This document shows, one piece after another, positions 14,007 through 45,161 of a stretch of DNA of 64,000 nucleotides. A program made the position numbers and the translations under genes. Every line of letters begins with the position of its first letter. Position 1 is the stretch's first letter. A model generated the notes under the pieces. It was not told the DNA's origin. It did not search any database and saw nothing but the letters and a program-made list of their open reading frames with translations. Location of the stretch: IMG/VR virus record IMGVR_UViG_3300044640_000771; one strand, 5' to 3'. The stretch is from a virus (lineage: Duplodnaviria > Heunggongvirae > Uroviricota > Caudoviricetes).

Positions 14007-14813
14007 ATGCCAGTACAAATCCATAAAAATGACAAACCTTGCTTGTACAAGCAATGGACTTTCCCAGGCGGAGAAGTCGGTGTACAATTGTTGGATACCG
14101 ATATCGAAGATCGGGATGAAATTTGGATTACCATTCGAGGTATCCCAACACCTGAAGATATGTTCGTTGCAGCAAACTTGCTGAATGCTATCCGAAATGT
14201 AAACAGCAAAGCTGAAGTCAACCTTTATATGCCCTACATTCCGTATGCAAGGCAAGATCGGGTTTGCAACAAGGGTGAATCTTTCGGGCTGATGGTATAT
14301 TTTGACATGATGCAGTATATGTTCGCTGATGTTGATCACTTCACTACGGTTGATCCGCACAGTCGAGTAGCAGAAGACTTGGTAAATGCTTTTGAATGCA
14401 CCATTATTCCACAGCACGTTATGGCTGGATCAATTTTGCATTCTTTCAACTATGACACTCTGATTGCACCCGACAAAGGAGCTACAGAAAAGGCTAAGAA
14501 ATTCAATCACAAGAATCTAGTAACTCTCAGCAAGTCCAGGACTGCAGAAGGTATCAAGTACGATGATTACGAGCATGATACTCTTTCGGGTTCCGTTCTG
14601 GTTGTAGACGATATCTGCGACGGTGGAGGTACGTTTCTGTCGCTGATTGATATGCTTAAACGTACCCAACCTCGTGTGACAAGTTATGCTCTGTACGTCA
14701 CACACGGTATCTTCAGCAAGGGTGTTGACGTTCTGCTGAAGGCTGGCTACAATGAAGTCTTTACAGCAAACAACATGCTTGAAATTGGAAGGAACAAATA
14801 TGTACACAATTGA
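14007..14813 (+). CDS. ribose-phosphate pyrophosphokinase (PRPP synthetase) family protein; candidate ADPR-PP synthetase (Adps-like) of a NAD+ reconstitution pathway
   Basis: PRPS motif YARQDR and PRPP-binding loop VLVVDDICDGGGT. Sits immediately upstream of, and overlapping, the NAMPT-like gene. Confidence 0.8.
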   Translation: MPVQIHKNDKPCLYKQWTFPGGEVGVQLLDTDIEDRDEIWITIRGIPTPEDMFVAANLLNAIRNVNSKAEVNLYMPYIPYARQDRVCNKGESFGLMVYFDMMQYMFADVDHFTTVDPHSRVAEDLVNAFECTIIPQHVMAGSILHSFNYDTLIAPDKGATEKAKKFNHKNLVTLSKSRTAEGIKYDDYEHDTLSGSVLVVDDICDGGGTFLSLIDMLKRTQPRVTSYALYVTHGIFSKGVDVLLKAGYNEVFTANNMLEIGRNKYVHN

Positions 14814-16362
14814 CCCAATCATCCAAACAGATTTTTACAAGATCCATCACAAGTTTCAGTACCACCCCAAGACTGAAATGATCTACAGTAACTTCACCCC
14901 TCGGTCAAATCGACTGGCACCTGTCTACGGTTCCAATCGTAAGATTCGTAAGGTTGTGAACTTCGGTTTGCAGGGTTTCATCAAGAACTTCCTGATTGGT
15001 ATCTTCAACAAGAACTTCTTCCAGCAAGACATTGCTGTGATCAAGGCTAAGTATGCTCGTCTGTGTGGTGTCGATACAACACACATTGAAGAGTTGCATG
15101 CTCTCGGTTACCTGCCGATTAAAATCAAGGCGCTTCCTGAAGGTGAACTGATCCCCATGAAGGTTCCGATGTTTACCGTCAAGAGCACCTTGCCAAAGTT
15201 CTATTGGCTGGTGAATTACCTGGAAACGGTTATGTCAGATGAAATCTGGAAGCCTACTACGGTAGCTACCATTGCCTTTGAGTACCGCAAGCTGCTGGAA
15301 CACTATGCAACGAAGACTGGTTCTCCGCTTGATTTCGTCAAGTGGCAAGGTCACGATTTCTCTATGCGTGGTATGTCCGGTATGGTCGATGCTGCTGCCT
15401 CTGGTTCCGGTCACTTGCTGCCATTCACTGGTACAGATACAATCCCTGCAATTGATTATCTTGAGCAATTGTATGGTGGCCTGAATACCTTTGTTGGTGC
15501 GTCGGTTCCTGCCAGTGAGCACAGTACTGCCAGTGCAAACATTCTCTTCAATGCTCGCCAGATCAAGGGTGAGACTGATACCGAAGAAGTTATGTATGAA
15601 GCTGAACGCGCTTTCCTGAAGCGATATATCACCGAGATTTACCCTACTGGTGTAGCTAGTTATGTCAGTGATACCTTTGACTTCTTCCGAGTTATCAATG
15701 AGATTGCCCCTTCGCTGAAGAAGGAAATTATGTCTCGTCAGCCTGATGCTCTAGGATTGAATAAGGTTGTATTCCGTCCTGACAGTGGTGATCCTGTTGA
15801 GATTCTGTGCGGTCAAGATGTAACGGATGAAAACATTGAACGCACTCCCGAGCAGAAGGGTGCTGTAGAAGTTCTGTGGGATCACTTCGGTGGTACAATT
15901 ACCGAAACAGGTCACAAGCTGCTTGACTGCCACGTTGGTCTGATCTACGGTGACAGCATCACTCTGAGCCGCGCCGAAGAGATTCTTCGCAAGCTTGAGC
16001 AGAAGGGATTTGCTTCTGGTAACGTAGTCTTCGGTATCGGTAGTTTCACCTATCAGTACTTGACACGAGACACCTTCGGCTTTGCTATGAAGGCTACTTA
16101 CCAAGTAGTTGACGGTGAAGGTATCGAACTCTTCAAAGACCCTGTTACCGACAGTGGTACTAAGAAGTCTGCTCGTGGTCTGCTACTTGTCACGAAGGAT
16201 GATCTTGGCTACAATCTGATTGATCAAGTCGATGGTGCAACAGAAGAGATTGGCTGTCTGCGAACGGTGTTCAAAGATGGTGTGTTGACAGTCGATGATG
16301 ATCTGGCTACAATTCGTACTCGGGTTGAGCAAAACCTGATCCAAGAACTGCAAGACTACTAA
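14800..16362 (+). CDS. nicotinamide phosphoribosyltransferase (NAMPT/NadV) family protein; candidate Namat-like enzyme
   Basis: N-terminal IIQTDFYKIHH (NAMPT TDSYK-like). About 520 aa, the typical size. SD GGAAGGA before the ATG at 14800. Confidence 0.85.
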   Translation: MYTIDPIIQTDFYKIHHKFQYHPKTEMIYSNFTPRSNRLAPVYGSNRKIRKVVNFGLQGFIKNFLIGIFNKNFFQQDIAVIKAKYARLCGVDTTHIEELHALGYLPIKIKALPEGELIPMKVPMFTVKSTLPKFYWLVNYLETVMSDEIWKPTTVATIAFEYRKLLEHYATKTGSPLDFVKWQGHDFSMRGMSGMVDAAASGSGHLLPFTGTDTIPAIDYLEQLYGGLNTFVGASVPASEHSTASANILFNARQIKGETDTEEVMYEAERAFLKRYITEIYPTGVASYVSDTFDFFRVINEIAPSLKKEIMSRQPDALGLNKVVFRPDSGDPVEILCGQDVTDENIERTPEQKGAVEVLWDHFGGTITETGHKLLDCHVGLIYGDSITLSRAEEILRKLEQKGFASGNVVFGIGSFTYQYLTRDTFGFAMKATYQVVDGEGIELFKDPVTDSGTKKSARGLLLVTKDDLGYNLIDQVDGATEEIGCLRTVFKDGVLTVDDDLATIRTRVEQNLIQELQDY

Positions 16363-18460: not shown

Positions 18461-19390
18461 ATGAAATATATCATTGGTTCGGATAGCGTCACTGTTTTTG
18501 TTGACGGCAAGCCCTGCACAGTAAATAAGCAGGCACCTACATATAATCTAGTCATCAAGGCACTGAAGAGTGGTAATGTTGATGAACTGCGCAATGCAAT
18601 CAATATTCGTCAGTCAATTGTTACGAATTTGAATAGCAAGGCCAAGGGTAAGGTTCGAATTGAATCTAGCCGAATCTTCTACGAAGATCGTGAAGTTACA
18701 GGTCTGATCGCAGGTCGTGTCTTTGAAGTGATCCGCCTTGGTCTGGATGTTCAACCGATGGTCAACTTCATTGAAAACCTGATGAAGAATCCTTCGAAGC
18801 GTGCAACTGACGAACTGTTCGGTTTCATGGATGCATGCGATCTGCCTATCACTGAAGACGGTCATTTCCTGGCATACAAGCGTGTACGTTCAGACTACAA
18901 GGATGTTTACTCTGGTACTATGGACAATAGCGTAGGTAAAGTTCTGGAAATGTCTCGAAATCTTGTTGACGAAGATAAGGATAACACTTGCTCTTACGGT
19001 CTGCATTTCTGTAGCTACGATTATTTGCAGCACTTCAGCGGCGATCGTGTCATGGTTCTGAAGATTAACCCTGCCGATGTAGTGGCTATTCCTTCAGACT
19101 ATAACAACGCGAAGGGTCGTGCTTGCCGATACGAAGTAGTTGACGAACTTCCTGTGAATGGTAAAATGCCAGAGTACAAGATTCAGGCAAACTACTCAGC
19201 TGACTACGCAAAGCCGGTTTCAACCTCACCAATCGGTCAGACGAAGCTGGGTGCCTCTTCTGTTCGTGCAATTAAGCACATGCTGGCAAATGGTGTAGCA
19301 ATCGCAGTTATCGCTCGTAAGTTCAACGTGAGTTCGCGTACCGTGGCTCGTATCCGTGATGGTCAAGTGGAGGCTTATAAGAATGTCTAA
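18461..19390 (+). CDS. rIIB: rIIB-like protein
   Basis: 309 aa directly after rIIA. Conserved rIIB block ITEDGHFLAYKRVRSDY...CSYGLHFCSYDYLQHF...IPSDYNNAKGRACRYEVV. Confidence 0.8.
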   Translation: MKYIIGSDSVTVFVDGKPCTVNKQAPTYNLVIKALKSGNVDELRNAINIRQSIVTNLNSKAKGKVRIESSRIFYEDREVTGLIAGRVFEVIRLGLDVQPMVNFIENLMKNPSKRATDELFGFMDACDLPITEDGHFLAYKRVRSDYKDVYSGTMDNSVGKVLEMSRNLVDEDKDNTCSYGLHFCSYDYLQHFSGDRVMVLKINPADVVAIPSDYNNAKGRACRYEVVDELPVNGKMPEYKIQANYSADYAKPVSTSPIGQTKLGASSVRAIKHMLANGVAIAVIARKFNVSSRTVARIRDGQVEAYKNV

Positions 19391-19640
19391 TGTAGCTAAA
19401 CTGAAAGAAGTACTTGCTAAAATCAAGGTAGACAACAAGTGCGATGCTGAAAAAGTTGTGCGAGAGCTTTGTTCATTCGTCAATGATGTAGAAGATAAAA
19501 TTGCAGAAATTGCAATTGAATATCAGATTCGTGCTCACATTGCCGGACCATACGGTGCGAGTCGTTGGGTAAGTCTTGAAGGTGATTCCTACTACGACAT
19601 TGAACCCGGCGAGTGGCAAGCTTCTGCTCAATCCTGTTAA
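19383..19640 (+). CDS. hypothetical protein
   Basis: Start MSNVAKLKEVL. Confidence 0.35.
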   Translation: MSNVAKLKEVLAKIKVDNKCDAEKVVRELCSFVNDVEDKIAEIAIEYQIRAHIAGPYGASRWVSLEGDSYYDIEPGEWQASAQSC

Positions 19641-19679: not shown

Positions 19680-19874
19680 ATGTATCTATCAAACGATGAA
19701 TATAAGCCCCTAGCTGTAAGCGCGGATGCCCTAGAAAAAGTAGTTGCTTTCATGATTGAAAATGAAATTAACTTTGTAAGGGCCACCGACGAAGATTCAG
19801 CAGATGGTATCGTGTCACTAGCCAATGATGAACTGGCTGAATGGCAACCATCGTGGGAAGAGTCGAGTTGCTAA
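19680..19874 (+). CDS. hypothetical acidic protein
   Basis: 64 aa, AAAGGAG SD. Confidence 0.35.
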   Translation: MYLSNDEYKPLAVSADALEKVVAFMIENEINFVRATDEDSADGIVSLANDELAEWQPSWEESSC

Positions 19875-19883
19875 GGAGGTAAT

Positions 19884-20102
19884 ATGAACCAAAAAGAATT
19901 CGATAACCTTGTCGATGAACATAATGAACTCGTACTAGAAAGTGAAAACAAGCTGGTAAAGATTGCTCTGGAGAATAATCTAAAACTTGAACTTGGTGCT
20001 GCTTATGGTGAAGGTCGAATGCTTCTTCTGGAAGATGACAACAAAGACTGGGGATCAGGCAAGAAGCGGGGCGAATGGTTGTACTCTTCGGAAAGTTGCT
20101 GA
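19884..20102 (+). CDS. hypothetical protein
   Basis: 72 aa, AAGGAGG SD. Confidence 0.35.
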   Translation: MNQKEFDNLVDEHNELVLESENKLVKIALENNLKLELGAAYGEGRMLLLEDDNKDWGSGKKRGEWLYSSESC

Positions 20103-20329
20103 TGAAATTCTGTTCTGATTGTAAACACTATCGTGAACAACTCAGTGGGCAATGGTGTTATCATCCTTCACTCGGTGTTCGGATTGTAGACGGCACTTCG
20201 AATCGAAAATACTGCGTTACAATGCGGCATGAACATGGAGATTGTGGGCCAAATGCCAAGTTGCACGAAGAAAAGACTTCCGCTACAATCATTCCATTCT
20301 GGAAAAAACTCTTTAAGTTGAAAGGATAA
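20102..20329 (+). CDS. hypothetical Cys-rich small protein (zinc-ribbon-like)
   Basis: MKFCSDCKHY...CYHP...CVTMRHEHGDC. Confidence 0.35.
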   Translation: MKFCSDCKHYREQLSGQWCYHPSLGVRIVDGTSNRKYCVTMRHEHGDCGPNAKLHEEKTSATIIPFWKKLFKLKG

Positions 20330-20330
20330 C

Positions 20331-21281
20331 ATGCTAGTTCTTATTGGTTCCCGCGCTATCGAATACTGGTGCAATGACTTCCGAAAAGTCGGTCCTGACT
20401 ATGATTTCATTGGTACAAAAGAAGAATTCAAGAGTTTGGTTACTCGTCTGATTCAAGACGGAAATCGCCTAGTTGAATTGAAATTCATCGAGGGAACCAA
20501 TAAGGCATACGCTAAGTTCAGCAAGTTCATCATTGACATGAGTATGGTTGATGTTGACGGTCCTCTGCGAGAGTCTGATGCGGAAATCTATGAGTATGCC
20601 AAGCATCGGTTTGGTTGCATTTTTCTGAAAGAACTTGACAACTACTTCATGCTTTCTACTTTGGAACTCAACTTTGTCTTGAAGGAATCCCATAAGTTCA
20701 AGAAGAATAGTCCGCACTTCCTCAAGACGATGCAAGACCTAGAGTTTCTTCGCAGGTTTACAAATGAAAACATTATCAATGTGTATCTTCGTGAAGTACT
20801 TGACCGACGCAAGAAAGCAACGTACAATTACCAGCATCCTAAGTTGAACACCAGCAAACAGGAGTTCTTCACGGATTCTGTACCGTATCAGTACGATCAT
20901 GATACAATTCATGAAGCGGTTAAGCACTTGGACAAACCTGCGTATCAGTACTACATGCAAGACGATGCCCAGGTAATGTGCAGTAGCGACAAGTTCTTCG
21001 CGCAGCCTGAGATTGTTCGGTTGTATGGTGTACTTGAAGAAAGCTATGTACTTGCCCTGGAACGTGCTGTGATTCCACACGGTACTAATCCAGAACGTGC
21101 ATTTGAGATTGCACTGGAGAAAGTTTGCACCAGCATTACCAGCGGATGGTTCCGTGAGTATGCTTACGAGAACTACTTCAAGGTGAAGAATATGTACCAC
21201 GCTAGCTATGTTGACAAGTTCAACCGAGCCTTGTACAATAACCAGATCAAACCATTTAAGGAGAGTTCTTATGCCAAGTAA
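20331..21281 (+). CDS. hypothetical protein with N-terminal nucleotidyltransferase-fold signature
   Basis: VLIGSRAIEYWCNDFRKVGPDYDFIG matches hG[GS]-x-DhD of KNTase-type minimal NTases. About 250 aa of unknown C-terminal region. Confidence 0.45.
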   Translation: MLVLIGSRAIEYWCNDFRKVGPDYDFIGTKEEFKSLVTRLIQDGNRLVELKFIEGTNKAYAKFSKFIIDMSMVDVDGPLRESDAEIYEYAKHRFGCIFLKELDNYFMLSTLELNFVLKESHKFKKNSPHFLKTMQDLEFLRRFTNENIINVYLREVLDRRKKATYNYQHPKLNTSKQEFFTDSVPYQYDHDTIHEAVKHLDKPAYQYYMQDDAQVMCSSDKFFAQPEIVRLYGVLEESYVLALERAVIPHGTNPERAFEIALEKVCTSITSGWFREYAYENYFKVKNMYHASYVDKFNRALYNNQIKPFKESSYAK

Positions 21282-21744
21282 AATTCAAACAGTCTACGGT
21301 AACGTACTTGACTTTACTGAAAATGCTGTTATGATTCATGGCTGCAATTGTCAGGGTGTGATGGGTAGTGGTGTTGCGTTGGCTGTACGGGAGAAGTATC
21401 CTGATGTGTTCGCTGATTATCGCACGTTGTGCAACCTCTACGCCGACGATTCCTCTCGATTGCTAGGTGACAATCAGTATGTGTATGTGTCGGAGAATCA
21501 TGTTATTGTGAATGCAATGACGCAAGACTTCTTCGGTGGAGGTAGGCAGATCAATTACGAAGCTATCTATCTGTGCTTCGAACGTGTAAATCAGTTCTTG
21601 ACAAACGTTGCATTTGAAGCTACACTCTACTTTCCAAAGATTGGTGCAGGACTCGGTGGTGGTAACTGGGAAATCATCAAGACAATTATTGAACAAACCG
21701 TTGACCAGAAGTTCAATCCGACTCTGGTAGAATTTTCAGGTTGA
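21271..21744 (+). CDS. macro domain (ADP-ribose binding/processing) protein
   Basis: VMIHGCNCQGVMGSGVALAV and IGAGLGGGNWEII match macro-domain glycine-rich motifs. TAAGGAG SD before the ATG at 21271. Confidence 0.7.
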   Translation: MPSKIQTVYGNVLDFTENAVMIHGCNCQGVMGSGVALAVREKYPDVFADYRTLCNLYADDSSRLLGDNQYVYVSENHVIVNAMTQDFFGGGRQINYEAIYLCFERVNQFLTNVAFEATLYFPKIGAGLGGGNWEIIKTIIEQTVDQKFNPTLVEFSG

Positions 21745-21866: not shown

Positions 21867-22478
21867 ATGCTAAAACAACTAGAAGGTACTCTCGTTTACG
21901 TCATGTGCGACAAACCCACTCCTTGCTATGAAAAGGATAAGGGTACAGAATGGAAAGCTGGTATCGTACTAACTGACGAAGATACGGTTGATCTATTCGA
22001 TGAGACTTATCCTAAGCAGTCTGCTAAGAAAGTCAAGTCAAGCGAATTTGAAGAAATTTACAAGTGCAAGCTGCCAGAAGGTGCAGGTAAGAACGTATGG
22101 GTCATCACCCTGAAGAAGAATACCAAGCTATCAAACGGTGAAGATGTACCTGATAAGTATCGTCCGCACGTATTCGAAGTAACTGAAAGCGCAGGTAAGA
22201 AAGTAATGACCGACATTACCTTTACCAAGCTGGCTGGTAACGGATCAAAGGGTATTCTTACCATTGATCACTGGGCTGGTGAAAAGGGTAACGTAGCTCG
22301 TCTGAAGAACGTAGCTGTTACTGAACTGATCGAATATGTCAAGCCTGAAGGTTCAGACTACAATCCTGGTGATGAGTTTGATTTCGGTGATGCTCCTGCT
22401 CCAAAGGCTGAAGCAAAGAAGCCAGCTGCGAAGAAAGCAGTGAAGAGTGATGCAGAAGACGATGGCGCTCCCTTCTGA
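21867..22478 (+). CDS. ssb: single-stranded DNA-binding protein
   Basis: 203 aa with a lysine/alanine-rich linker and acidic C-terminal tail ending DDGAPF (SSB-type C-terminus). Strong promoter upstream. Confidence 0.65.
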   Translation: MLKQLEGTLVYVMCDKPTPCYEKDKGTEWKAGIVLTDEDTVDLFDETYPKQSAKKVKSSEFEEIYKCKLPEGAGKNVWVITLKKNTKLSNGEDVPDKYRPHVFEVTESAGKKVMTDITFTKLAGNGSKGILTIDHWAGEKGNVARLKNVAVTELIEYVKPEGSDYNPGDEFDFGDAPAPKAEAKKPAAKKAVKSDAEDDGAPF

Positions 22479-22600: not shown

Positions 22601-22677
22601 GCGTCCTTAGCTCAGAGGATCAGAGCAGTGGTCTTCTACACCATAGGTCGGGAGTTCGAATCTCTCAGGACGCACCA
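22601..22677 (+). tRNA. tRNA-Arg (anticodon UCU)
   Basis: Hand-folded cloverleaf. Acceptor GCGTCCT/AGGACGC, D-stem GCTC/GAGC with GG loop, anticodon loop CTTCTAC, T-loop GGGAG-TTCGAAT-CTCTC, CCA encoded. Confidence 0.85.
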
Positions 22678-22684
22678 GAACATT

Positions 22685-22770
22685 GGGCAACTGACCAAGT
22701 GACAAATTGGTACAGTCGGCAGATTCAAAATCTGTGGTTTTTCCCGGTTCGATTCCGGGGTTGCCTACCA
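22685..22770 (+). tRNA. aberrant tRNA-like element (tRNA-Leu CAA-like; possibly a pseudo-tRNA)
   Basis: Acceptor GGGCAAC/GTTGCCT plus A plus CCA. T-arm CCCGG-TTCGATT-CCGGG. Anticodon arm GCAGA-TTCAAAA-TCTGT. Leu-type D-arm GAC-AAATTGGTACA-GTC. However, 7 extra nt (ACCAAGT) follow position 9 and the variable region is only 7 nt. Confidence 0.45.
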
Positions 22771-22777
22771 GATCAAC

Positions 22778-22900
22778 GGGAGCGCAAGGTCATTCCTTGC
22801 ATTTATGGAAAGTAATTTTGTGAGTGTGTAGAACTGCCAAATGCCTAGGAATGAAGGTGAGACTGCACAAAACCAAATCCATATCTAGCTGCTCCCACCA
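22778..22900 (+). ncRNA. candidate small structured RNA with tRNA-like acceptor end
   Basis: 123-nt spacer begins GGGAGCG and ends TGCTCCC-A-CCA (7-bp terminal helix plus discriminator plus CCA). No T-loop or anticodon arm recognisable. An internal hairpin CAAGG-TCATT-CCTTG is present. Confidence 0.25.
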
Positions 22901-22906
22901 AACAAC

Positions 22907-22980
22907 GGGGTCTTAATTCAATGGTAGAATATTCGGCTTTTACCCGATCAACATAGGTTCGATTCCTATAGGCCCTACCA
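22907..22980 (+). tRNA. tRNA-Lys (anticodon UUU)
   Basis: Acceptor GGGGTCT/AGGCCCT. D-arm ATTC-AATGGTA-GAAT. Anticodon loop CTTTTAC. T-arm ATAGG-TTCGATT-CCTAT. CCA encoded. Confidence 0.85.
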
Positions 22981-22990
22981 AATCCAGATT

Positions 22991-23467
22991 ATGAAAACAA
23001 TACTTAAAATATACGGTCCATACCAACATGAAAATGGTAGATTATTTGTAGTAGCAAAATACAGTGACGGTAGTAAAGGAAGTATTTCTTATCCTAAATA
23101 CTTAATGGAATTACATTTGGGTAGAAAACTACTACCAAATGAAACAGTCGATCATATCGATAGAAACTATCTCAATAATGAAATATCAAACCTGCAGATT
23201 TTAGATAGATCGTTACATGTAAAGTTAGACGTAAAGCGACGACAAGACGAAATCTTAACTTGTATTTGGTGTAATGCAAATTTCTTAAAGACAGGAAAAA
23301 TTTTATCCACCCAAAACTCCAGAATAAAACATACAGCAGGCCCGTTCTGCAGTAAAAAATGTTCAGGAAAATACGGAGCATCAATTCTTCATGATGGCAT
23401 CGAGCCACTAGCAAGAGTGCAAAACCCTAAGAACTATTATCAATTAGATAAATCCTCAGTAGTTTAA
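22991..23467 (+). CDS. HNH homing endonuclease embedded in the tRNA cluster
   Basis: VDHIDRNYLNNEISNLQIL HNH_3 motif. C-terminal Cys cluster (CIWC...CSKKC). Starts 11 nt after tRNA-Lys. Confidence 0.75.
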   Translation: MKTILKIYGPYQHENGRLFVVAKYSDGSKGSISYPKYLMELHLGRKLLPNETVDHIDRNYLNNEISNLQILDRSLHVKLDVKRRQDEILTCIWCNANFLKTGKILSTQNSRIKHTAGPFCSKKCSGKYGASILHDGIEPLARVQNPKNYYQLDKSSVV

Positions 23468-23543
23468 TGGTAAAACAGCGGAATTATACCCCGTAGCGCC
23501 AGATAAGCGGCTAATATTGGTTCGAATCCAGTTTGAGGAACCA
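23453..23543 (+). tRNA. aberrant tRNA-like element (class II length, anticodon ambiguous, UAU if the canonical fold is imposed)
   Basis: Acceptor TCCTCAG/TTGAGGA plus A plus CCA. D-arm GTTT-AATGGTA-AAAC. T-arm ATTGG-TTCGAAT-CCAGT. The middle 39 nt fold poorly (A-C mismatch closing the anticodon stem, 21-nt extra arm). The 5' end overlaps the HNH stop codon. Confidence 0.4.
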
Positions 23544-39080: not shown

Positions 39081-42000
39081 TTAAACAACAGTTCTAGTTG
39101 CAACAGCATCACCGTCAGGTGTTACTCGTTCTAGAATCTTAGCTACCTTGCTTGTGTGAGTTACCCCAGCACGAACTTCGTAACGTAGACCTTCGATATT
39201 TGCGTTTAGTTTCTCAACCAAAGCTTCTAGATTAGAACCAGAACCTAGCATTCCAGCAGTAGTCTTAGCATCGTAAACACGACCTGATGAATTGAAGTTA
39301 ATCAACTCTGGACCGTTTTCACCTACAAGAGCAATACCACCAGCGTAGTTTCCTCCATCTGCGTAAGCAGGGATTGCTAGACCGTAGTTAGTATTGATTC
39401 TTGTACCTGTAGCTTCTAGACTTGCAGCTGTCAGCATTTGGATTCTGCGGAGTTCAATCATGCTTCTGGCTTGTTCACCAGCAATATCCAACAAAGCTCT
39501 ACTCAATTCTGGTAGGGACTTTGCTGCTTCTTGATCACCGTTTAGAGCCCTTACGGTTGCACTATCAAATGCAGACTGAGCTTGTGCTAGACTATTCGGA
39601 CCTTCGCCGGCTACTAGACCACGAATGCGCGCAAATTCTTCGAAGATAGAATCTGTAATAGATTTCCATGCGTCTTTGATTTGCTGCGCTGCTCTTGCTG
39701 CTTCTTCAGCGGCTTGTGCTTGTGCTCTTGCTGCTTCTTCAGCGGCTTGTGCTTGTGCTCTAGCTGCTTCCTCTGCTGCTTGCGCAGCAATCTTGTCGGC
39801 TTCAATCTTGTCTTCAATTGCCCAAATCTGTTTCTGTGCTTCGCGGTTAGCTGGATCAACCAAAGCTAATTCACGTTCACGAAGAGTCTTAGTATCACCA
39901 AGTAATTGCAGTCGCTTAGTTTCCAGGTTGTATGCTTCAGATTCAACTTGCTTCTTCTTATCAGCGGCTTCAGCTGCAGCTTTCTGTGAAGCTTCCACTT
40001 CCCAAATCTGCTTTTGAATACGTTGACTTTCAGCATCAGCTAGTTTGTCAAGAATAGCTTGTTGCTTATCTGCTGCACTCGCTGTTAACTGGAACAATTG
40101 ATCTTGCAGAGATTGTCTCTGAGCAATCAACTTATCTTCAGCGGCTTTCAATTCTTCAGTCTTCTTGGCAGCTTCTTCAAGCGACCAGATTAGTTTCTGA
40201 AGTTCTTGATTTGCAGGACTCATTGTTGCCAGTTCTTTTGCACGAATCTCTGCTGTACTGTGAGTCAGTTTGAATAACTCATCTTCCAGTTTGTTTCGTA
40301 CATTCAGATCGGCAATTTGAGCCTTCATAGCCTGATTCATGTCGTAAGCTGCAATCTCCAGTTCTGTCATACCTTCGATAGCAAGAAGTCGAGTAGCTGC
40401 ATTAGCTTCGGCAGTCTTGCCTTGAAGTTCTAGTAACTGAATAGCAAGTTGCCTACCTTCGTCTTTCATGTTAGCTAGACTCTCAGCAATATCTTGTGCA
40501 GTACGCCCTGTAGCTTCCGCCCAAGGGTTTAGTTCTGCAAAGGCACCACTCAGCATCATTAGTTTAGCAGCGAGGTCTTCGTTACCAGCAGCAAGAGCCT
40601 TCTCTACTTCTACTCTGTACTTTAGTCTGTCGGCAGGAACCGCAATTCCTAGCTTCTCAAACTCTTTAGACAAAGCAGCAGTAGCAGCATTAGCTTTCTC
40701 ACTGTCGTTATAGAAGTTCTGATAGAAACCACTAGCAACACCAGATAGATTCTCGATACTACCGAAAGCACCCAGTAATGAACTTACCGCTTCACCAGTT
40801 AGGTTAGCGAACATTGGCATTACTGAACCTAGATTCTCTAGAGCATTCTGAGTAGCGTTGATTCTGTCAACTACAGCACCAAGTTGTTCAACAGTAGGAG
40901 CATCGCCCAAACTATCCAACATACTAGTTGCCCACTCAGGTAATCCAATAGATTCCAGAGCTTTCTTAACGTCAGCAGCTACAGCAGCATTGAATTCCTT
41001 TAGACCGGCTTCACCGTCTGAGAATGACTTCCCAGGCCAGCGACCGTTACCTTCAGAACCGAATCCTGCTAGGTTTTCACCTAGCTTACCAATCATTAGA
41101 GAACCCCAAGCGCCATCCTTAGACGAATCATCTGCGAATGCTACAGCGGCTTCATAACCAGCAGTCTTACCGAAGTTCAAAGCCGTTTGATCTAGAATAT
41201 CAACGATACCCTTAGACATTGCAGCCATTGAAGTTTCTACATCCTTGCTGTAGAATCCCTTATCGGAACCTACACCGTAGACTCCCATACCTGTCTTTGA
41301 ACCAGAACCAGCACTGTAGGAAGCGCTAGCACCAGTATGCGGTGTACCAGAGTCATCTAGTTTCTTGTAGATTGCGTAAAGTGCAAGAGCAGCAGCGATA
41401 TAAGGAGCAGCAGCACCTAATTGCATAGCAATTCCGTTAGCACCACCAACCGCAGAACCTGCTGTCATACCTGCGCTCATTCCTGTACCGGCTACAGTGT
41501 TCATCGCTCCAGTAGCAAAGTATGATCCCATAGAAGACATACTTACACCAGAACCTAGTACTGAACCAAGCATACCACTGCCTGCAGAACCAGCAGCGGA
41601 CCCAGTTGCACTTCCTGTAACGTTTCCGAGTACAGAGTTTACAAATCCACCAGTGATATCCTTAACTACAGCGTTTACAAATAGTGTAATAGGCTTACGT
41701 AGTTCAGCGACAATTACATCGCGTAACTTCTTCTTACCAGCTTTACCACCTTCGAACAATGCTGTTACGATTGCGTCTGAGATTCCATCTTGAATTCTGT
41801 TAAATTCTTTCATGAAATCTTCTGCTGCTGATACTGCGACTTCCCGATTTGCAACTAATTGCTTTTCTTTACGAACGCGATCAGCATCTGAAACAGCTTT
41901 TAGATAACCTTCAATATCGAACTCAGCACCTTCAGTATTACCTTGAGCATCGACAAATTTCTTCCAAATTCGCATCTGTTCGATTGCAAACTCAGCGTCG

Positions 42001-45000
42001 GCTTGACGAATCTTTGCTTGACGAGTTACTTCACGAGTGATAACTTTTGTCTGCTCTTCGGTCTTACCTAGTACTTGCATTCTAAGATTCAGACTGTCGT
42101 TTTCTTTGTTGATTGATTCAACTTGCTTTTCGTAATCTAGAGCTAGAGAACTTCTCAGTTCGTAAATCTTATCTTCATACTTCAGAAGTTCTTTCTTTAG
42201 TCTAAGTTCTTCTTTTTGGAAAGCCTGTAGTTTCTCGGCGTTAACAGCTTTGTCTCTTTCCAGAGCAAGTTCTTCCTGTCTTTTGCTTGAGAACTTATCC
42301 CAGTTACTAGACGCTTTGATTTCATTGTAAGCAATTTCAGCTTTAGTAAGTTCTCTTGTCTTACCTGCAGCTTCTTCTCTTAGAGTAATAAACCTCTGAA
42401 TTGCAGCGTTGTAAGCATTATCGATCTTAAGTTGCTCTTTGGCACCGTCTTTAGCCGTCTTAGTTTTCTTCCACTCTAACTCAGCTAACTTTTCAAGGTC
42501 TTTCATTTGAACTTGATTCAGCGCTGTTTGATTACCAACAATCTTCGCTTCTTCTAGTTTTTTATCAATGAATTTCTGGACGAACTCTGTACGAGTCATT
42601 TCCTTCATTGTCAACTTATCAAGATCATCTTGAATAGATTTATTCAATCTTCTGGTAGCTTCAGTTGCACGAGCTTGAGCAGCTTGTGTAGCCATCATGT
42701 CTTTATCAGCTTCTTCTTGAAGAATCTTATAATTCAACTGATCACGAAGAATTTGAAGCTTTTCTTTGTCGGCAGCTAAAGCTTGCTTGTTAACAGGACC
42801 GAAACTATTTTCACGCCCTGCGATTCTTTCTTGTAAAGCTGCAATATCCTTTTCAAGTTTCTGAGTAGCGTTTGGATTGTAAATCAAACTCTTGATTCCA
42901 GACCATAAATCAGAGAAAGCCTTTCCTGTTTCAACAAGAATTGTACCAAGCGTACTATAATCTTGTTTCATTCGATCAACAGCTACCTGATTAACTCTTG
43001 CGGCTTCATTCATTGCAATTGTCTGAGCTTCTGTCTTGCGTCCGGAATCCTCCATTTGAATAGCCATCTGAAGGGTTTCTTGTGATACCATACCCGTAGC
43101 TTTTGCCAATTCAATTAGAGCCTCTACAGGTTCCTTTTTGAACTTGGCAAAAGATTTGACAGCATCTTCGGCGGAAATGCCAAGTTGTTCAGACATTTGC
43201 TTTGCGACTGGAACTAGAAGTTGCAGTTCTTGCTTAGTAAAATTACCCGCTTTAGCAAATTCAGTTATGTACTGAACCGCTGAACTTACGTTCATTCCAA
43301 CTTGTTCAAAACTAGCCGCAAAATCAATCGCTGCATTTTTAGTAAGACCGAGTGATCCACCAGTCAGAATAAGTGCTTTACTTAGTTCATCAGCTTCTTT
43401 AGATGCCTTGAAAAAAGCAACACCGTATGCTAAACTGAAAGCACCGAAAGCTAGAGTAATGGCAGTCACTGTTGTTGTCATCACAGCAATGATACCATTC
43501 ATTACTGTCAGAGCACCTGTTGTTTTACCACTGATCGCTTCTGCAAGTTCTAGTTCGGTTCTCCATCTGCGAATCGCATCACCGCCAAACGGACCTGAGA
43601 ATCTAGCACCCAAATTACCAACTGCGTCATACAGAGACTTAAATGCACCACCAACGAAAATACCGATGTTTTTACCAGTATCGATAAATGACTCCGCAAT
43701 CATTGCTGCAGCAACTCTCATTGCCGCGCCAGTATCTACCGCATCTTTCTTTGCGAGTTGGAATGCAGCTCTCAACTGGTCACCCTGCTGGATCATGATC
43801 ATGAAAGGATTCATACCACCAGCAAGAGAAACAGCAACGTCACCCATTTGAACAGATACTGCTCTAGCTAGGTTACGAAGGTCTTTATCCATTTCTTCGT
43901 TAGTCTTTTTCTGACCTGCAATGATTGTACTGCGATACTTTTCCATCATAGCAGTTGCTTCATCACCAGAAATACCAGCTTTACGAAGTTGCTCACTAAA
44001 TCTAAAAAGACGGTTTGATGATGAAACTTTCAATTCATCATTAAAACCTACAAGTGCATTATCTGCTCTTCGAATTTCACGGTCTAACCATTCAGCAGCC
44101 TTGGCAGCTTCACTCATCGCACCTGACTGCTTTACACTTGAACCTGTAACATTCTGCTTTGCAGCAGCTAGTTGCTTTTCAGCAGCAATCAGTTTCTCGA
44201 TATTAGCCAGTTCAACACCAGATGCAGCCATGTCGGTACGCTTTGTAGCTTCACCTTGAGACATACCACCGGCAACTAGCTTGGAAATCTTAGCCAATCT
44301 TTCAGCTGAGTCGATAGCGGCTTGGTTTGCGTCGATAATCTTTTGTGAAGCACGAGCAGCAGCATCGGCCTTCTCTTGTTCCAGCTTACGGAACTGAGCA
44401 ACTGCAGTATCCATCATAGTGATGTTTTCAGCAAGTTGTTTGTTCTGTAGCTTGTTTTGCTTTTCTAGTTCCTTGGCTGCAGCAACGTAGTTATTTACGC
44501 TACCTGCTACCTGTAGATATTCTCTTTCCAGTTTTGCCAAAGCAGCAGCAATAGCTTCCTGGGAAGACCCTTGTTGCTTCATTGAGTCTGACAAACGAAT
44601 CTGATCACGAGTCAACAGTCTAACTTGTTCGCTTGTTAGGTTGAAACCCTTAGCCAAATACTCTGCAGCATTTGACATTTCCATAGCTTTCTGCTTCAGT
44701 TGACCTAATCCAGATGCGCTTTGGTCAAAAGGATTCTTACCTGTTACCTTACTGATATCTTTAAATACATTAGCAAGTGCTTGCAGTTGATCAGAAGTAG
44801 CTCCTGCAGCAGTAGCAGTAGCCATCATTCCGGCTTGGCTCTTTGTGAACCCGTCTTCAATATACTTCTGATCGTTACGTAGGAACTTCAACACATCTGA
44901 TTGGTGTTGAATCATCTTGGATACTCGATCCAGATTCTTCGGTAGATCACCAGCGAGAGGTTTATTCAGTCTTTCAGCACCTTGTGCAGCTTCCTCTAGT

Positions 45001-45161
45001 CCAGTAGCTGCTGTAGACGCACCTTTCCCTAAGTCTCCTAGCCCTTTACCTGCGCTAGAAGAATTTACCTTTTGCATTGCTGCAGCCAGATTGTTTAGAT
45101 CATCTGCTGCTTGCTTGACTTCAGCAGTTTCAACTTTGAAACTTAACGTGGAGAGTTCCAT
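39081..45161 (-). CDS. tail tape measure protein
   Basis: 2026 aa, highly alpha-helical and coiled-coil. Hydrophobic glycine-rich segment. AEEAARAQAQ tandem repeats. Follows the gpG/gpT-like genes. Confidence 0.85.
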   Translation of the reverse strand: MELSTLSFKVETAEVKQAADDLNNLAAAMQKVNSSSAGKGLGDLGKGASTAATGLEEAAQGAERLNKPLAGDLPKNLDRVSKMIQHQSDVLKFLRNDQKYIEDGFTKSQAGMMATATAAGATSDQLQALANVFKDISKVTGKNPFDQSASGLGQLKQKAMEMSNAAEYLAKGFNLTSEQVRLLTRDQIRLSDSMKQQGSSQEAIAAALAKLEREYLQVAGSVNNYVAAAKELEKQNKLQNKQLAENITMMDTAVAQFRKLEQEKADAAARASQKIIDANQAAIDSAERLAKISKLVAGGMSQGEATKRTDMAASGVELANIEKLIAAEKQLAAAKQNVTGSSVKQSGAMSEAAKAAEWLDREIRRADNALVGFNDELKVSSSNRLFRFSEQLRKAGISGDEATAMMEKYRSTIIAGQKKTNEEMDKDLRNLARAVSVQMGDVAVSLAGGMNPFMIMIQQGDQLRAAFQLAKKDAVDTGAAMRVAAAMIAESFIDTGKNIGIFVGGAFKSLYDAVGNLGARFSGPFGGDAIRRWRTELELAEAISGKTTGALTVMNGIIAVMTTTVTAITLAFGAFSLAYGVAFFKASKEADELSKALILTGGSLGLTKNAAIDFAASFEQVGMNVSSAVQYITEFAKAGNFTKQELQLLVPVAKQMSEQLGISAEDAVKSFAKFKKEPVEALIELAKATGMVSQETLQMAIQMEDSGRKTEAQTIAMNEAARVNQVAVDRMKQDYSTLGTILVETGKAFSDLWSGIKSLIYNPNATQKLEKDIAALQERIAGRENSFGPVNKQALAADKEKLQILRDQLNYKILQEEADKDMMATQAAQARATEATRRLNKSIQDDLDKLTMKEMTRTEFVQKFIDKKLEEAKIVGNQTALNQVQMKDLEKLAELEWKKTKTAKDGAKEQLKIDNAYNAAIQRFITLREEAAGKTRELTKAEIAYNEIKASSNWDKFSSKRQEELALERDKAVNAEKLQAFQKEELRLKKELLKYEDKIYELRSSLALDYEKQVESINKENDSLNLRMQVLGKTEEQTKVITREVTRQAKIRQADAEFAIEQMRIWKKFVDAQGNTEGAEFDIEGYLKAVSDADRVRKEKQLVANREVAVSAAEDFMKEFNRIQDGISDAIVTALFEGGKAGKKKLRDVIVAELRKPITLFVNAVVKDITGGFVNSVLGNVTGSATGSAAGSAGSGMLGSVLGSGVSMSSMGSYFATGAMNTVAGTGMSAGMTAGSAVGGANGIAMQLGAAAPYIAAALALYAIYKKLDDSGTPHTGASASYSAGSGSKTGMGVYGVGSDKGFYSKDVETSMAAMSKGIVDILDQTALNFGKTAGYEAAVAFADDSSKDGAWGSLMIGKLGENLAGFGSEGNGRWPGKSFSDGEAGLKEFNAAVAADVKKALESIGLPEWATSMLDSLGDAPTVEQLGAVVDRINATQNALENLGSVMPMFANLTGEAVSSLLGAFGSIENLSGVASGFYQNFYNDSEKANAATAALSKEFEKLGIAVPADRLKYRVEVEKALAAGNEDLAAKLMMLSGAFAELNPWAEATGRTAQDIAESLANMKDEGRQLAIQLLELQGKTAEANAATRLLAIEGMTELEIAAYDMNQAMKAQIADLNVRNKLEDELFKLTHSTAEIRAKELATMSPANQELQKLIWSLEEAAKKTEELKAAEDKLIAQRQSLQDQLFQLTASAADKQQAILDKLADAESQRIQKQIWEVEASQKAAAEAADKKKQVESEAYNLETKRLQLLGDTKTLRERELALVDPANREAQKQIWAIEDKIEADKIAAQAAEEAARAQAQAAEEAARAQAQAAEEAARAAQQIKDAWKSITDSIFEEFARIRGLVAGEGPNSLAQAQSAFDSATVRALNGDQEAAKSLPELSRALLDIAGEQARSMIELRRIQMLTAASLEATGTRINTNYGLAIPAYADGGNYAGGIALVGENGPELINFNSSGRVYDAKTTAGMLGSGSNLEALVEKLNANIEGLRYEVRAGVTHTSKVAKILERVTPDGDAVATRTVV
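39688..39786 (-). repeat. 33-nt tandem repeat (about 3 copies) inside the TMP gene, encoding AAEEAARAQAQ units
   Basis: GCTCTTGCTGCTTCTTCAGCGGCTTGTGCTTGT repeated directly in the sequence. Confidence 0.7.

Follow-up and report, generated by a model that had tools for sequence, protein, structure and literature searches.

What does a nucleotidyltransferase (NTase) gene that runs directly into a macrodomain gene do for a lytic phage? The question is raised by positions 20331 to 21744 of a 64,000-nucleotide stretch of the caudovirus record IMGVR_UViG_3300044640_000771 (hereafter the window, meaning the whole stretch analyzed). Its source is a lytic phage genome represented in metagenomes only, with identical contigs of up to 87.5 kb, and a search of INPHARED returned no close DNA relative, the sole match being 78 nt of Pseudomonas phage PHB09. 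An earlier reading made from the sequence alone (the sequence-only reading) had joined the two proteins into a functional pair with an ADP-ribose-centered activity. Both open reading frames (ORFs), and the sequence strings quoted from them, were recovered at the reported positions on the + strand. We arrive at a different view of what they do. The reading that we favor, at somewhat better than even confidence, is that the two genes are independent, that the macrodomain protein is AdfM-like, and that the NTase, which we call ORF1 (316 residues; 20331-21281, +), modifies a tail shared by several small proteins encoded just upstream of it.

ORF1 belongs to a well-delimited protein family with no assigned function. 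It matches the Pfam families DUF7275 (E 7.8e-66, residues 116-293) and DUF7277 (E 1.5e-6, residues 3-59) as well as phrog_2141 (E 2.4e-97), a PHROG family without an assigned function; the matches of ORF1 and of the macrodomain protein to their families are not due to chance. At E ≤ 1, Pfam yielded only these two families and a sub-threshold DUF7008, with no match to DUF1814/AbiEii, and PADLOC and NCBIfam yielded no match to ORF1. The minimal-NTase signature that had been read in its N-terminal sequence, MLVLIGSRAIEYWCNDFRKVGPDYDFIG, is upheld by structure prediction and fold search alike. An AlphaFold2 model built with 48 homologues as input (predicted local distance difference test score [pLDDT], 93.3; predicted template modeling score, 0.88) has the pol-beta-type NTase fold, its top structural matches are MenT1, MenT3, and MenT4, and the alpha/beta core of this predicted model is superimposable on known NTases. 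Structural alignment with MenT1, MenT3, ANT(2'')-Ia, and LnuA places the core at approximately residues 1 to 150 (20331-20780, +).

The catalytic residues fall where this fold demands. The hG[GS] motif is I5-G6-S7, spanning the end of a strand (residues 3-5) and the start of a helix (6-14); G6 is kept in 76 and S7 in 75 of 77 independent homologues. D23-Y-D25, on strand 2 (23-28), is conserved in 76 of the 77, and the third carboxylate, D69 on strand 5 (67-72), is E or D in 72. These residues are near-invariant in two independent samples of homologues, loci where the BLAST alignment covered the C-terminal half alone being no exception. The predicted model and this conservation indicate that ORF1 is a genuine NTase, apparently active, with an intact catalytic triad.

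The large C-terminal part of the protein, described by the sequence-only reading as lacking a known match, does lack one: beyond about residue 150, neither fold nor profile searches matched the last ~160, helical residues to any solved structure, and a profile of the ORF1 family found no PDB sequence. Most of this part is covered by the mainly helical DUF7275 region (residues 116-293; 20676-21209, +). Twelve polar residues crowded into it are invariant (K118, H121, K132, R160, H190, D191, H194, E236, E237, E244, R245, and R275), as is G272, and C266 is nearly so. This pattern suggests that the C-terminal domain houses another center, for catalysis or for substrate binding. An HD-type hydrolase identity for this region was tested and is unsupported.

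A clue to what ORF1 might act on lies upstream of it, in a set of genes that the sequence-only reading did not mention. When the neighbors of ORF1 homologues were clustered, one recurrent family of small proteins emerged just upstream, and its members share the C-terminal consensus G-G-W-x-[S/P/A]-S-S-x-x-C, followed immediately by the stop codon. In 68 of 78 viral loci, the 3 kb upstream of the ORF1 homologue include one to five same-strand ORFs with this tail, and the gap between the ORF1 homologue and the nearest of them has a median of 187 nt and is frequently only 11 to 26 nt. Three more loci carry such ORFs just downstream of the ORF1 homologue. Across 60 full-length loci, the 2 kb before ORF1 contain 110 motif ORFs, compared with ~26 in the other 11 kb (both strands). 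The motif is just as localized within single genomes: in the window it occurs in exactly 3 of the 338 ORFs that are 40 residues or longer, all directly before ORF1, and in the complete 99-kb genome of Pseudomonas phage PN09 it occurs in 5 of 800 ORFs, all in the 2.5 kb that precede the ORF1 homologue. Looking up the small proteins in the reverse direction recovered a DUF7277/DUF7275 gene downstream in three of three cases. The same arrangement is found in the Escherichia coli Mosigvirus HY126 and in the Ralstonia jumbo phage RsoM2USA, as well as in L088 (4001-6441), L085 (3876-4670), and most of the loci L005 to L084, and a phage may have as many as five copies. For ORF1, the fold, the conservation of residues, and the gene linkage to tail-bearing proteins are established.

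This linkage is not circular, because the tail can be recovered without being searched for. A hidden Markov model of the small proteins from which the last 12 residues had been removed found 139 ORFs, 130 of which end in the motif with its terminal Cys; of the nine exceptions, five carry the motif plus one or two extra residues. Nor is the tail a conserved DNA element, a possibility that we considered and excluded: codons for the two conserved Ser residues come from the TCN box as well as the AGY box, and the stop codons are not uniform. The use of both Ser codon boxes implies that selection acts on the peptide, not on the DNA.

The small proteins themselves are short (60 to 155 residues; mean, 95) and acidic (mean net charge, -9). 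Thirty-four of 48 matched phrog_899, a family without a functional annotation, and none matched a Pfam family. In the window, the first (19383-19640, +; phrog_899 type) has 85 residues by gene call, the mechanical ORF beginning at GTG 19356, and ends GEWQASAQSC-stop; the second (19680-19874, +; 64 residues) ends AEWQPSWEESSC-stop, and the third (19884-20102, +; 72 residues) ends GEWLYSSESC-stop. As modeled by AlphaFold2 (pLDDT, 91), the third has a long helix together with a small sheet, whose last strand is formed by W65-Y67 and so includes the conserved Trp, the S-S-x-x-C end being modeled at lower confidence; the model gave no significant fold match in the PDB. We also considered whether these proteins are Nif11-type leaders of RiPPs (peptides made on ribosomes and modified after translation). 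One sub-threshold match (E 0.003, in an IMG/VR example) proved not to be general: none of the 48 proteins matched a Nif11 leader at E ≤ 0.05, and the model is that of a folded domain, not a leader peptide. A profile search with the small proteins against a database of 5.8 billion proteins gave only 25 matches, few because the proteins are short.

Several other genes accompany the array. Between the window's tail genes and ORF1 lies a Cys-rich ORF of 75 residues (MKFCSDCKHY...; 20102-20329, +), which is restricted to the closest relatives (L001-L004 and L098) and for which no family match was found. In Otagovirus-type phages a glutaredoxin gene (L088 3774-4004, L089 1875-2105, and L090 3671-3985) follows the ribonucleotide reductase genes and stands directly 5' of the first Cys-terminated tail protein; this may be ordinary synteny of the nrd region or may have a bearing on the terminal thiol. 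A DUF8296 protein of 105 to 111 residues is also encoded among the tail genes upstream of the ORF1 homologues of two relatives of the window phage (L099 3-338 and L100 3493-3810).

How widely is this module distributed? The ORF1 family comprises 2520 proteins at E ≤ 1e-5 and is present in 733 of 50,697 phage records (~1.4%), including phages of Escherichia (Mosigvirus and myoviruses of ~150 kb), Acinetobacter, Aeromonas, Pseudomonas, and Vibrio, jumbo phages, and phages of Gordonia and Streptomyces. Among 185,579 bacterial genomes we found seven loci, every one on a contig of a metagenome-assembled genome, and five of the seven have a small-protein array beside the ORF1 homologue. Since these loci are confined to such contigs and most bear the array, they are probably phage DNA, and we dropped them as a source of functional context. 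The module is phage-restricted, and it consists of an NTase with a MenT/ANT/Lnu-like core, a unique conserved C-terminal domain, and an upstream tail array. It appears to be undescribed: literature searches on the Pfam and PHROG identifiers, on phage RiPPs, and on phage AMPylation returned no description of it, and the families DUF7277, DUF7275, and phrog_2141 went unmentioned in the papers searched.

From the gene linkage we propose that ORF1 acts on, or is regulated by, the W-x-x-S-S-x-x-Cys tails. In the version that we favor, ORF1 would recognize the tail as a common C-terminal tag and transfer a nucleoside monophosphate (NMP) to a hydroxyl or thiol within it, that of a tail Ser or of the Cys. 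A single modifying enzyme would then serve several small effector proteins, in the manner of GlnD-PII or MntA-HepT. In those systems a pol-beta minimal NTase moves NMP to the side-chain hydroxyl of a Tyr in a small partner encoded nearby. They provide a working analogy only, the acceptors there being Tyr and the ones proposed here Ser or Cys. The small NTases ANT(2'')-Ia, LnuA, and JHP933, which adenylylate antibiotics or have unknown substrates, lack both the ORF1-like C-terminal domain and linked tail-protein genes.

A more ambitious form of the proposal can be sketched, to which we give distinctly less credence and which we offer as tentative. ORF1 and its tail proteins would constitute an undescribed post-translational system of large lytic phages from many lineages (T-even relatives, Otagovirus, jumbo phages, and Felix-like phages), in which the MenT-fold NTase, equipped with a unique and catalytic C-terminal domain, would recognize the W-x-x-S-S-x-x-Cys-COOH tail common to several small acidic effectors and modify it chemically. 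One example of such chemistry would be O-nucleotidylylation of a Ser, then elimination and thioether closure onto the terminal Cys; the closure is conceivable because the S-x-x-C spacing equals that of AviCys and lanthionine rings. Modification would activate or target a set of host-takeover or anti-defense proteins.

Two considerations weigh against a tail-modifying ORF1. The gene linkage fits small proteins that regulate or inhibit ORF1 equally well, and the MenT-type enzymes that are its best structural matches act on tRNA, not protein. Another explanation is that ORF1 would be a MenT/AbiEii-like RNA NTase acting on tRNA 3' ends, in host translation shut-off or in tRNA repair or maturation, with the small proteins as its inhibitors or specificity factors. 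The upstream position of the small genes mimics the antitoxin-toxin order of MenA-type antitoxins upstream of MenT, and in the window three tRNA genes lie 1.3 to 2.3 kb downstream of ORF1. Furthermore, the spacing in the sequence between the invariant K118 and D136, which 68 of 77 homologues have, resembles that of the catalytic pair K137/D152 of MenT1 (PMC10435456). ORF1 nevertheless has no detectable sequence relationship to the DUF1814, AbiEii-type MenT enzymes, which leave its C-terminal 160 residues unmatched. The MenT toxins belong to toxin-antitoxin loci, whereas ORF1 is found in lytic phages with no AbiEi or MenA homologue upstream; its small neighbors, moreover, are multiple, and the link to tRNA genes is weak. 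We consider an RNA-directed ORF1 unlikely, though not fanciful, and retain modification of the tails as the preferred role.

If the tail proteins are the conserved partners of ORF1, what of the macrodomain gene? It starts at ATG 21271 and so overlaps the last 11 nt of ORF1, and its ribosome-binding site, AAGGAG (21258-21263, +), lies within the 3' end of ORF1 and is separated from the start by a 7-nt spacer. The overlap with the ORF1 stop had been described correctly, although from this start the protein (21271-21744, +) has 157 residues, not 158. The window's clade is defined by the layout rIIA-rIIB ... ORF1 ... single-stranded DNA-binding protein (SSB)-like gene, and we sampled six related lineages. 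ORF1 is followed by the macrodomain gene in the window and in two of the six, L098 (ORF1 85% identical) and L100 (54%). The macrodomain gene does not follow ORF1 in L099 (59%), L005/6 (51%), L101 (49%), or L007 (47%), in which the next gene is either another gene or the SSB-like gene directly. The macrodomain gene is thus the occupant of a variable slot 3' of ORF1, and this argues against an obligate two-enzyme system.

Under the functional pairing advanced by the sequence-only reading, the NTase would make or modify an ADP-ribose-derived nucleotide for the macrodomain protein, or both would act on ADP-ribosylated DNA. Besides the 11-nt overlap, which would couple their translation, and the recurrence of the adjacency in L098 and L100, the pairing can draw on the nicotinamide adenine dinucleotide (NAD) genes of the same gene block. 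A Prs-like gene (14007-14813, +; phrog_619) and an overlapping Nampt-like gene (14752-16362, +; phrog_448) lie ~4 kb upstream of ORF1, with rIIA and rIIB in between. This pair has the same composition as the NARP1 NAD+ reconstitution pathway, which is summarized in PMC13464706 as an ADPR-PP synthetase and a nicotinamide ADPR-transferase. Prs/Nampt genes are found within 6 kb of ORF1 homologues in ~7 of 80 loci; in L100 the pair immediately precedes the ORF1 module, and in L022, L038, and L091 it immediately follows the ORF1 homologue. The NAD genes had been placed in the same early operon as the NTase and macrodomain genes. The shared strand and the proximity stand, but the operon is not established, because the window has promoter- and terminator-like sites at no higher frequency than shuffled sequence.

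Co-occurrence speaks strongly against the pairing. Among 80 diverse IMG/VR loci, the macrodomain gene was next to the ORF1 homologue in none and within 6 kb in only three, and it is missing from the four clade relatives named above. The two families also differ strongly in distribution (733 phage records for ORF1, 2330 for the macrodomain), and the conserved neighbor of ORF1 is a different gene family, the tail proteins. In T4, the macrodomain homologue Tk.4 lies in the tk region, where none of 11 compared neighbor genes is similar to ORF1. NrdC.11, the annotated "nucleotidyltransferase" of T4, was examined as a possible ORF1 homologue; no similarity was found, and the two are unrelated. On these data we reject a general functional NTase-macrodomain module, and we regard an ADP-ribose-centered pair as very improbable. 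The overlap retained in three lineages (the window, L098, and L100) does count against complete independence: co-expression is real in this clade, and a clade-specific functional link may exist. Our preferred interpretation remains that ORF1 and the macrodomain gene would be two independent early genes that happenstance has made adjacent and translationally coupled in the window's lineage.

The identification of the second protein as a macrodomain is robust. It scores 26.9 bits against Pfam Macro PF01661 (cut-off, 22) over residues 22 to 138, includes GCNCQGVMGSGVALAV and IGAGLGGGNWEII, and has the active-site residues N26 and Q85 in place. Its best profile matches are the DarG models of PADLOC and NCBIfam (E 4e-16 to 6e-17), of which the macro part alone is covered. 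BLASTP aligns it end to end with T4 Tk.4 (E 2.7e-20, 30% identity over 155 residues), and HGCNC, MGSGVA, N81, T84-Q85, and IGAG.G.GNW do not vary between the window protein, two relatives, and Tk.4. Of the relatives with solved structures, BT1257 and SCO6735 (E 1e-11) come closest to it, with Poa1p and DarG next; N26, Q85, and the Gly-rich diphosphate loop I124-GAGLGGGN-W133 align with residues of SCO6735 and BT1257.

Comparison with these systems places the protein more precisely. The window protein resembles Tk.4 in being a stand-alone protein of ~155 residues encoded among early genes, in its signature motifs, and in having a T-Q pair at the site of the DarG Lys; Tk.4 differs in its genomic neighborhood, and the activity of the window protein is a prediction. 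DarG of DarTG2 resembles it in the macro part (E ~1e-16), but the window protein lacks the C-terminal DarT-binding domain (157 versus ~340 residues), scores 59 bits against a cut-off of 250, and has Gln in place of the catalytic Lys80; no DarT gene was found near it. In PhiKZ gp104, another AdfM, the catalytic Lys of DarG is retained (K78); in the window protein and Tk.4 it is replaced by Gln. The bacterial proteins SCO6735 and BT1257, of the ALC1-like macrodomain subclass, share both the Gly-rich loop and the Asn27/Gln85 pair, which corresponds to N26/Q85 of the phage protein.

The experimental record of these relatives bears on the likely substrate. SCO6735 frees DNA of thymidine-linked ADP-ribose, for which N27 and Q85 are essential, and it rescues cells from DarT (PMC9411070). 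T4 tk.4 was the single hit in a transposon screen on DarTG2, its deletion sensitized T4, and it was named adfM (bioRxiv 10.1101/2025.11.20.689424). A PhiKZ-type DarG-like AdfM strips DarT2 marks off DNA in vitro (PMC13309987). Homology and active-site conservation thus make the window protein most likely a Gln-type member of the AdfM group, that is, a stand-alone DNA de-ADP-ribosylase of the T4 Tk.4/AdfM and SCO6735/BT1257 type. As an orphan DarG-like protein, it would remove the ADP-ribose that host DarT2-type toxins put on thymidines of phage single-stranded DNA and so restore replication. Reversal of DarT-type DNA ADP-ribosylation, one of the roles suggested by the sequence-only reading, is accordingly the best supported by homology to Tk.4/AdfM and SCO6735. 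The accompanying statement that no characterized phage system matches no longer holds for the macrodomain protein, because AdfM was described in 2025-2026.

DNA-linked ADP-ribose as the substrate is, however, an extrapolation from these homologues, and some features of the protein caution against it. Lys34 and Lys89 of SCO6735 are implicated in DNA binding (PMC9411070). In the phage protein, Lys34 is replaced by Ser33, and Lys89 has no counterpart, its mobile loop being three residues shorter; a DNA substrate is therefore not guaranteed. The evidence on Tk.4 is genetic and comes from a preprint (bioRxiv 10.1101/2025.11.20.689424), and only 30% of its residues are shared. The protein might act instead on Glu/Asp-linked ADP-ribose, ADP-ribose-1''-phosphate, O-acetyl-ADP-ribose, or ADP-ribose-derived immune signals; protein-linked ADP-ribose or a phosphate of ADP-ribose is a possible substrate. 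SCO6735 also acts on Glu/Asp-ADP-ribosylated PARP1 (PMC9411070), Poa1p, an ADP-ribose-1''-phosphatase, is a detectable relative, and across its 2330 phage records the family is usually annotated as "phosphatase" or "macro domain protein," the former label standing in both PHROG and GenBank. That label, however, stems from the T4 record, which notes an A1pp motif, without an assay behind it. Tk.4, the nearest relative with experiments, was the only significant hit of a genome-wide DarTG2 screen, and DarG is the best profile match. We therefore judge a substrate other than DNA-linked ADP-ribose to be improbable, though a serious contender, and continue to favor DNA.

The surroundings of the two genes are those of a replication/early block on the + strand, which contains genes for a ligase, a primase-helicase, an HNH protein, a DNA polymerase, the Prs-like and Nampt-like proteins, rIIA, and rIIB. 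After rIIB come four small ORFs, ORF1, the macrodomain gene, and the gene for a 203-residue protein (21867-22478, +) with an SSB-like acidic tail that ends DDGAPF and is preceded by an Ala/Lys-rich stretch. No family match was found for this protein; it is kept downstream of ORF1 in relatives at 46 to 92% identity and, in those without the macrodomain gene, is the conserved downstream neighbor of ORF1. Farther 3' stand three tRNA genes with an HNH gene, and then an exonuclease gene. The tRNA genes (Arg-TCT, Lys-TTT, and Ile-TAT; 22601-23543, +) are split by the HNH endonuclease gene (22991-23467), and the call for tRNA-Ile(TAT), which overlaps the stop of the HNH gene, has the unusual length of 91 nt; comparable calls of 91 to 92 nt occur in L007 and L055. 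A tRNA-linked function for ORF1 was considered from its neighborhood and dropped, because no more than 15 of 60 loci have tRNA genes within 6 kb. Transfer-messenger RNA-like genes (ARAGORN, flagged *) occur within tRNA clusters of two contigs with ORF1 homologues (L019 8397-8720 and L070 11057-11445). In the structural gene block of the window, an ORF of 2026 residues (39081-45161, -) probably encodes a tape-measure or large virion protein.

The macrodomain protein adds one more lineage to the recently recognized AdfM class of orphan-antitoxin counter-defenses, and, together with the nearby NARP1-like genes, it suggests a phage with the means to withstand both NAD-consuming and ADP-ribosylating immunity. 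The adjacency of the two genes was over-interpreted earlier, and the part most deserving of follow-up is the tail-protein partners of ORF1. The ORF1 family, which includes members in T-even relatives that infect E. coli, has so far been without a function, and its arrays of partners with a strictly conserved C-terminal octapeptide ending in Cys had previously gone unnoticed. For a block of phage "dark matter" genes, this yields a hypothesis that is concrete and cheap to test, that of an enzyme with tagged substrates, and the ORF1 module may expose a new kind of protein modification during infection.

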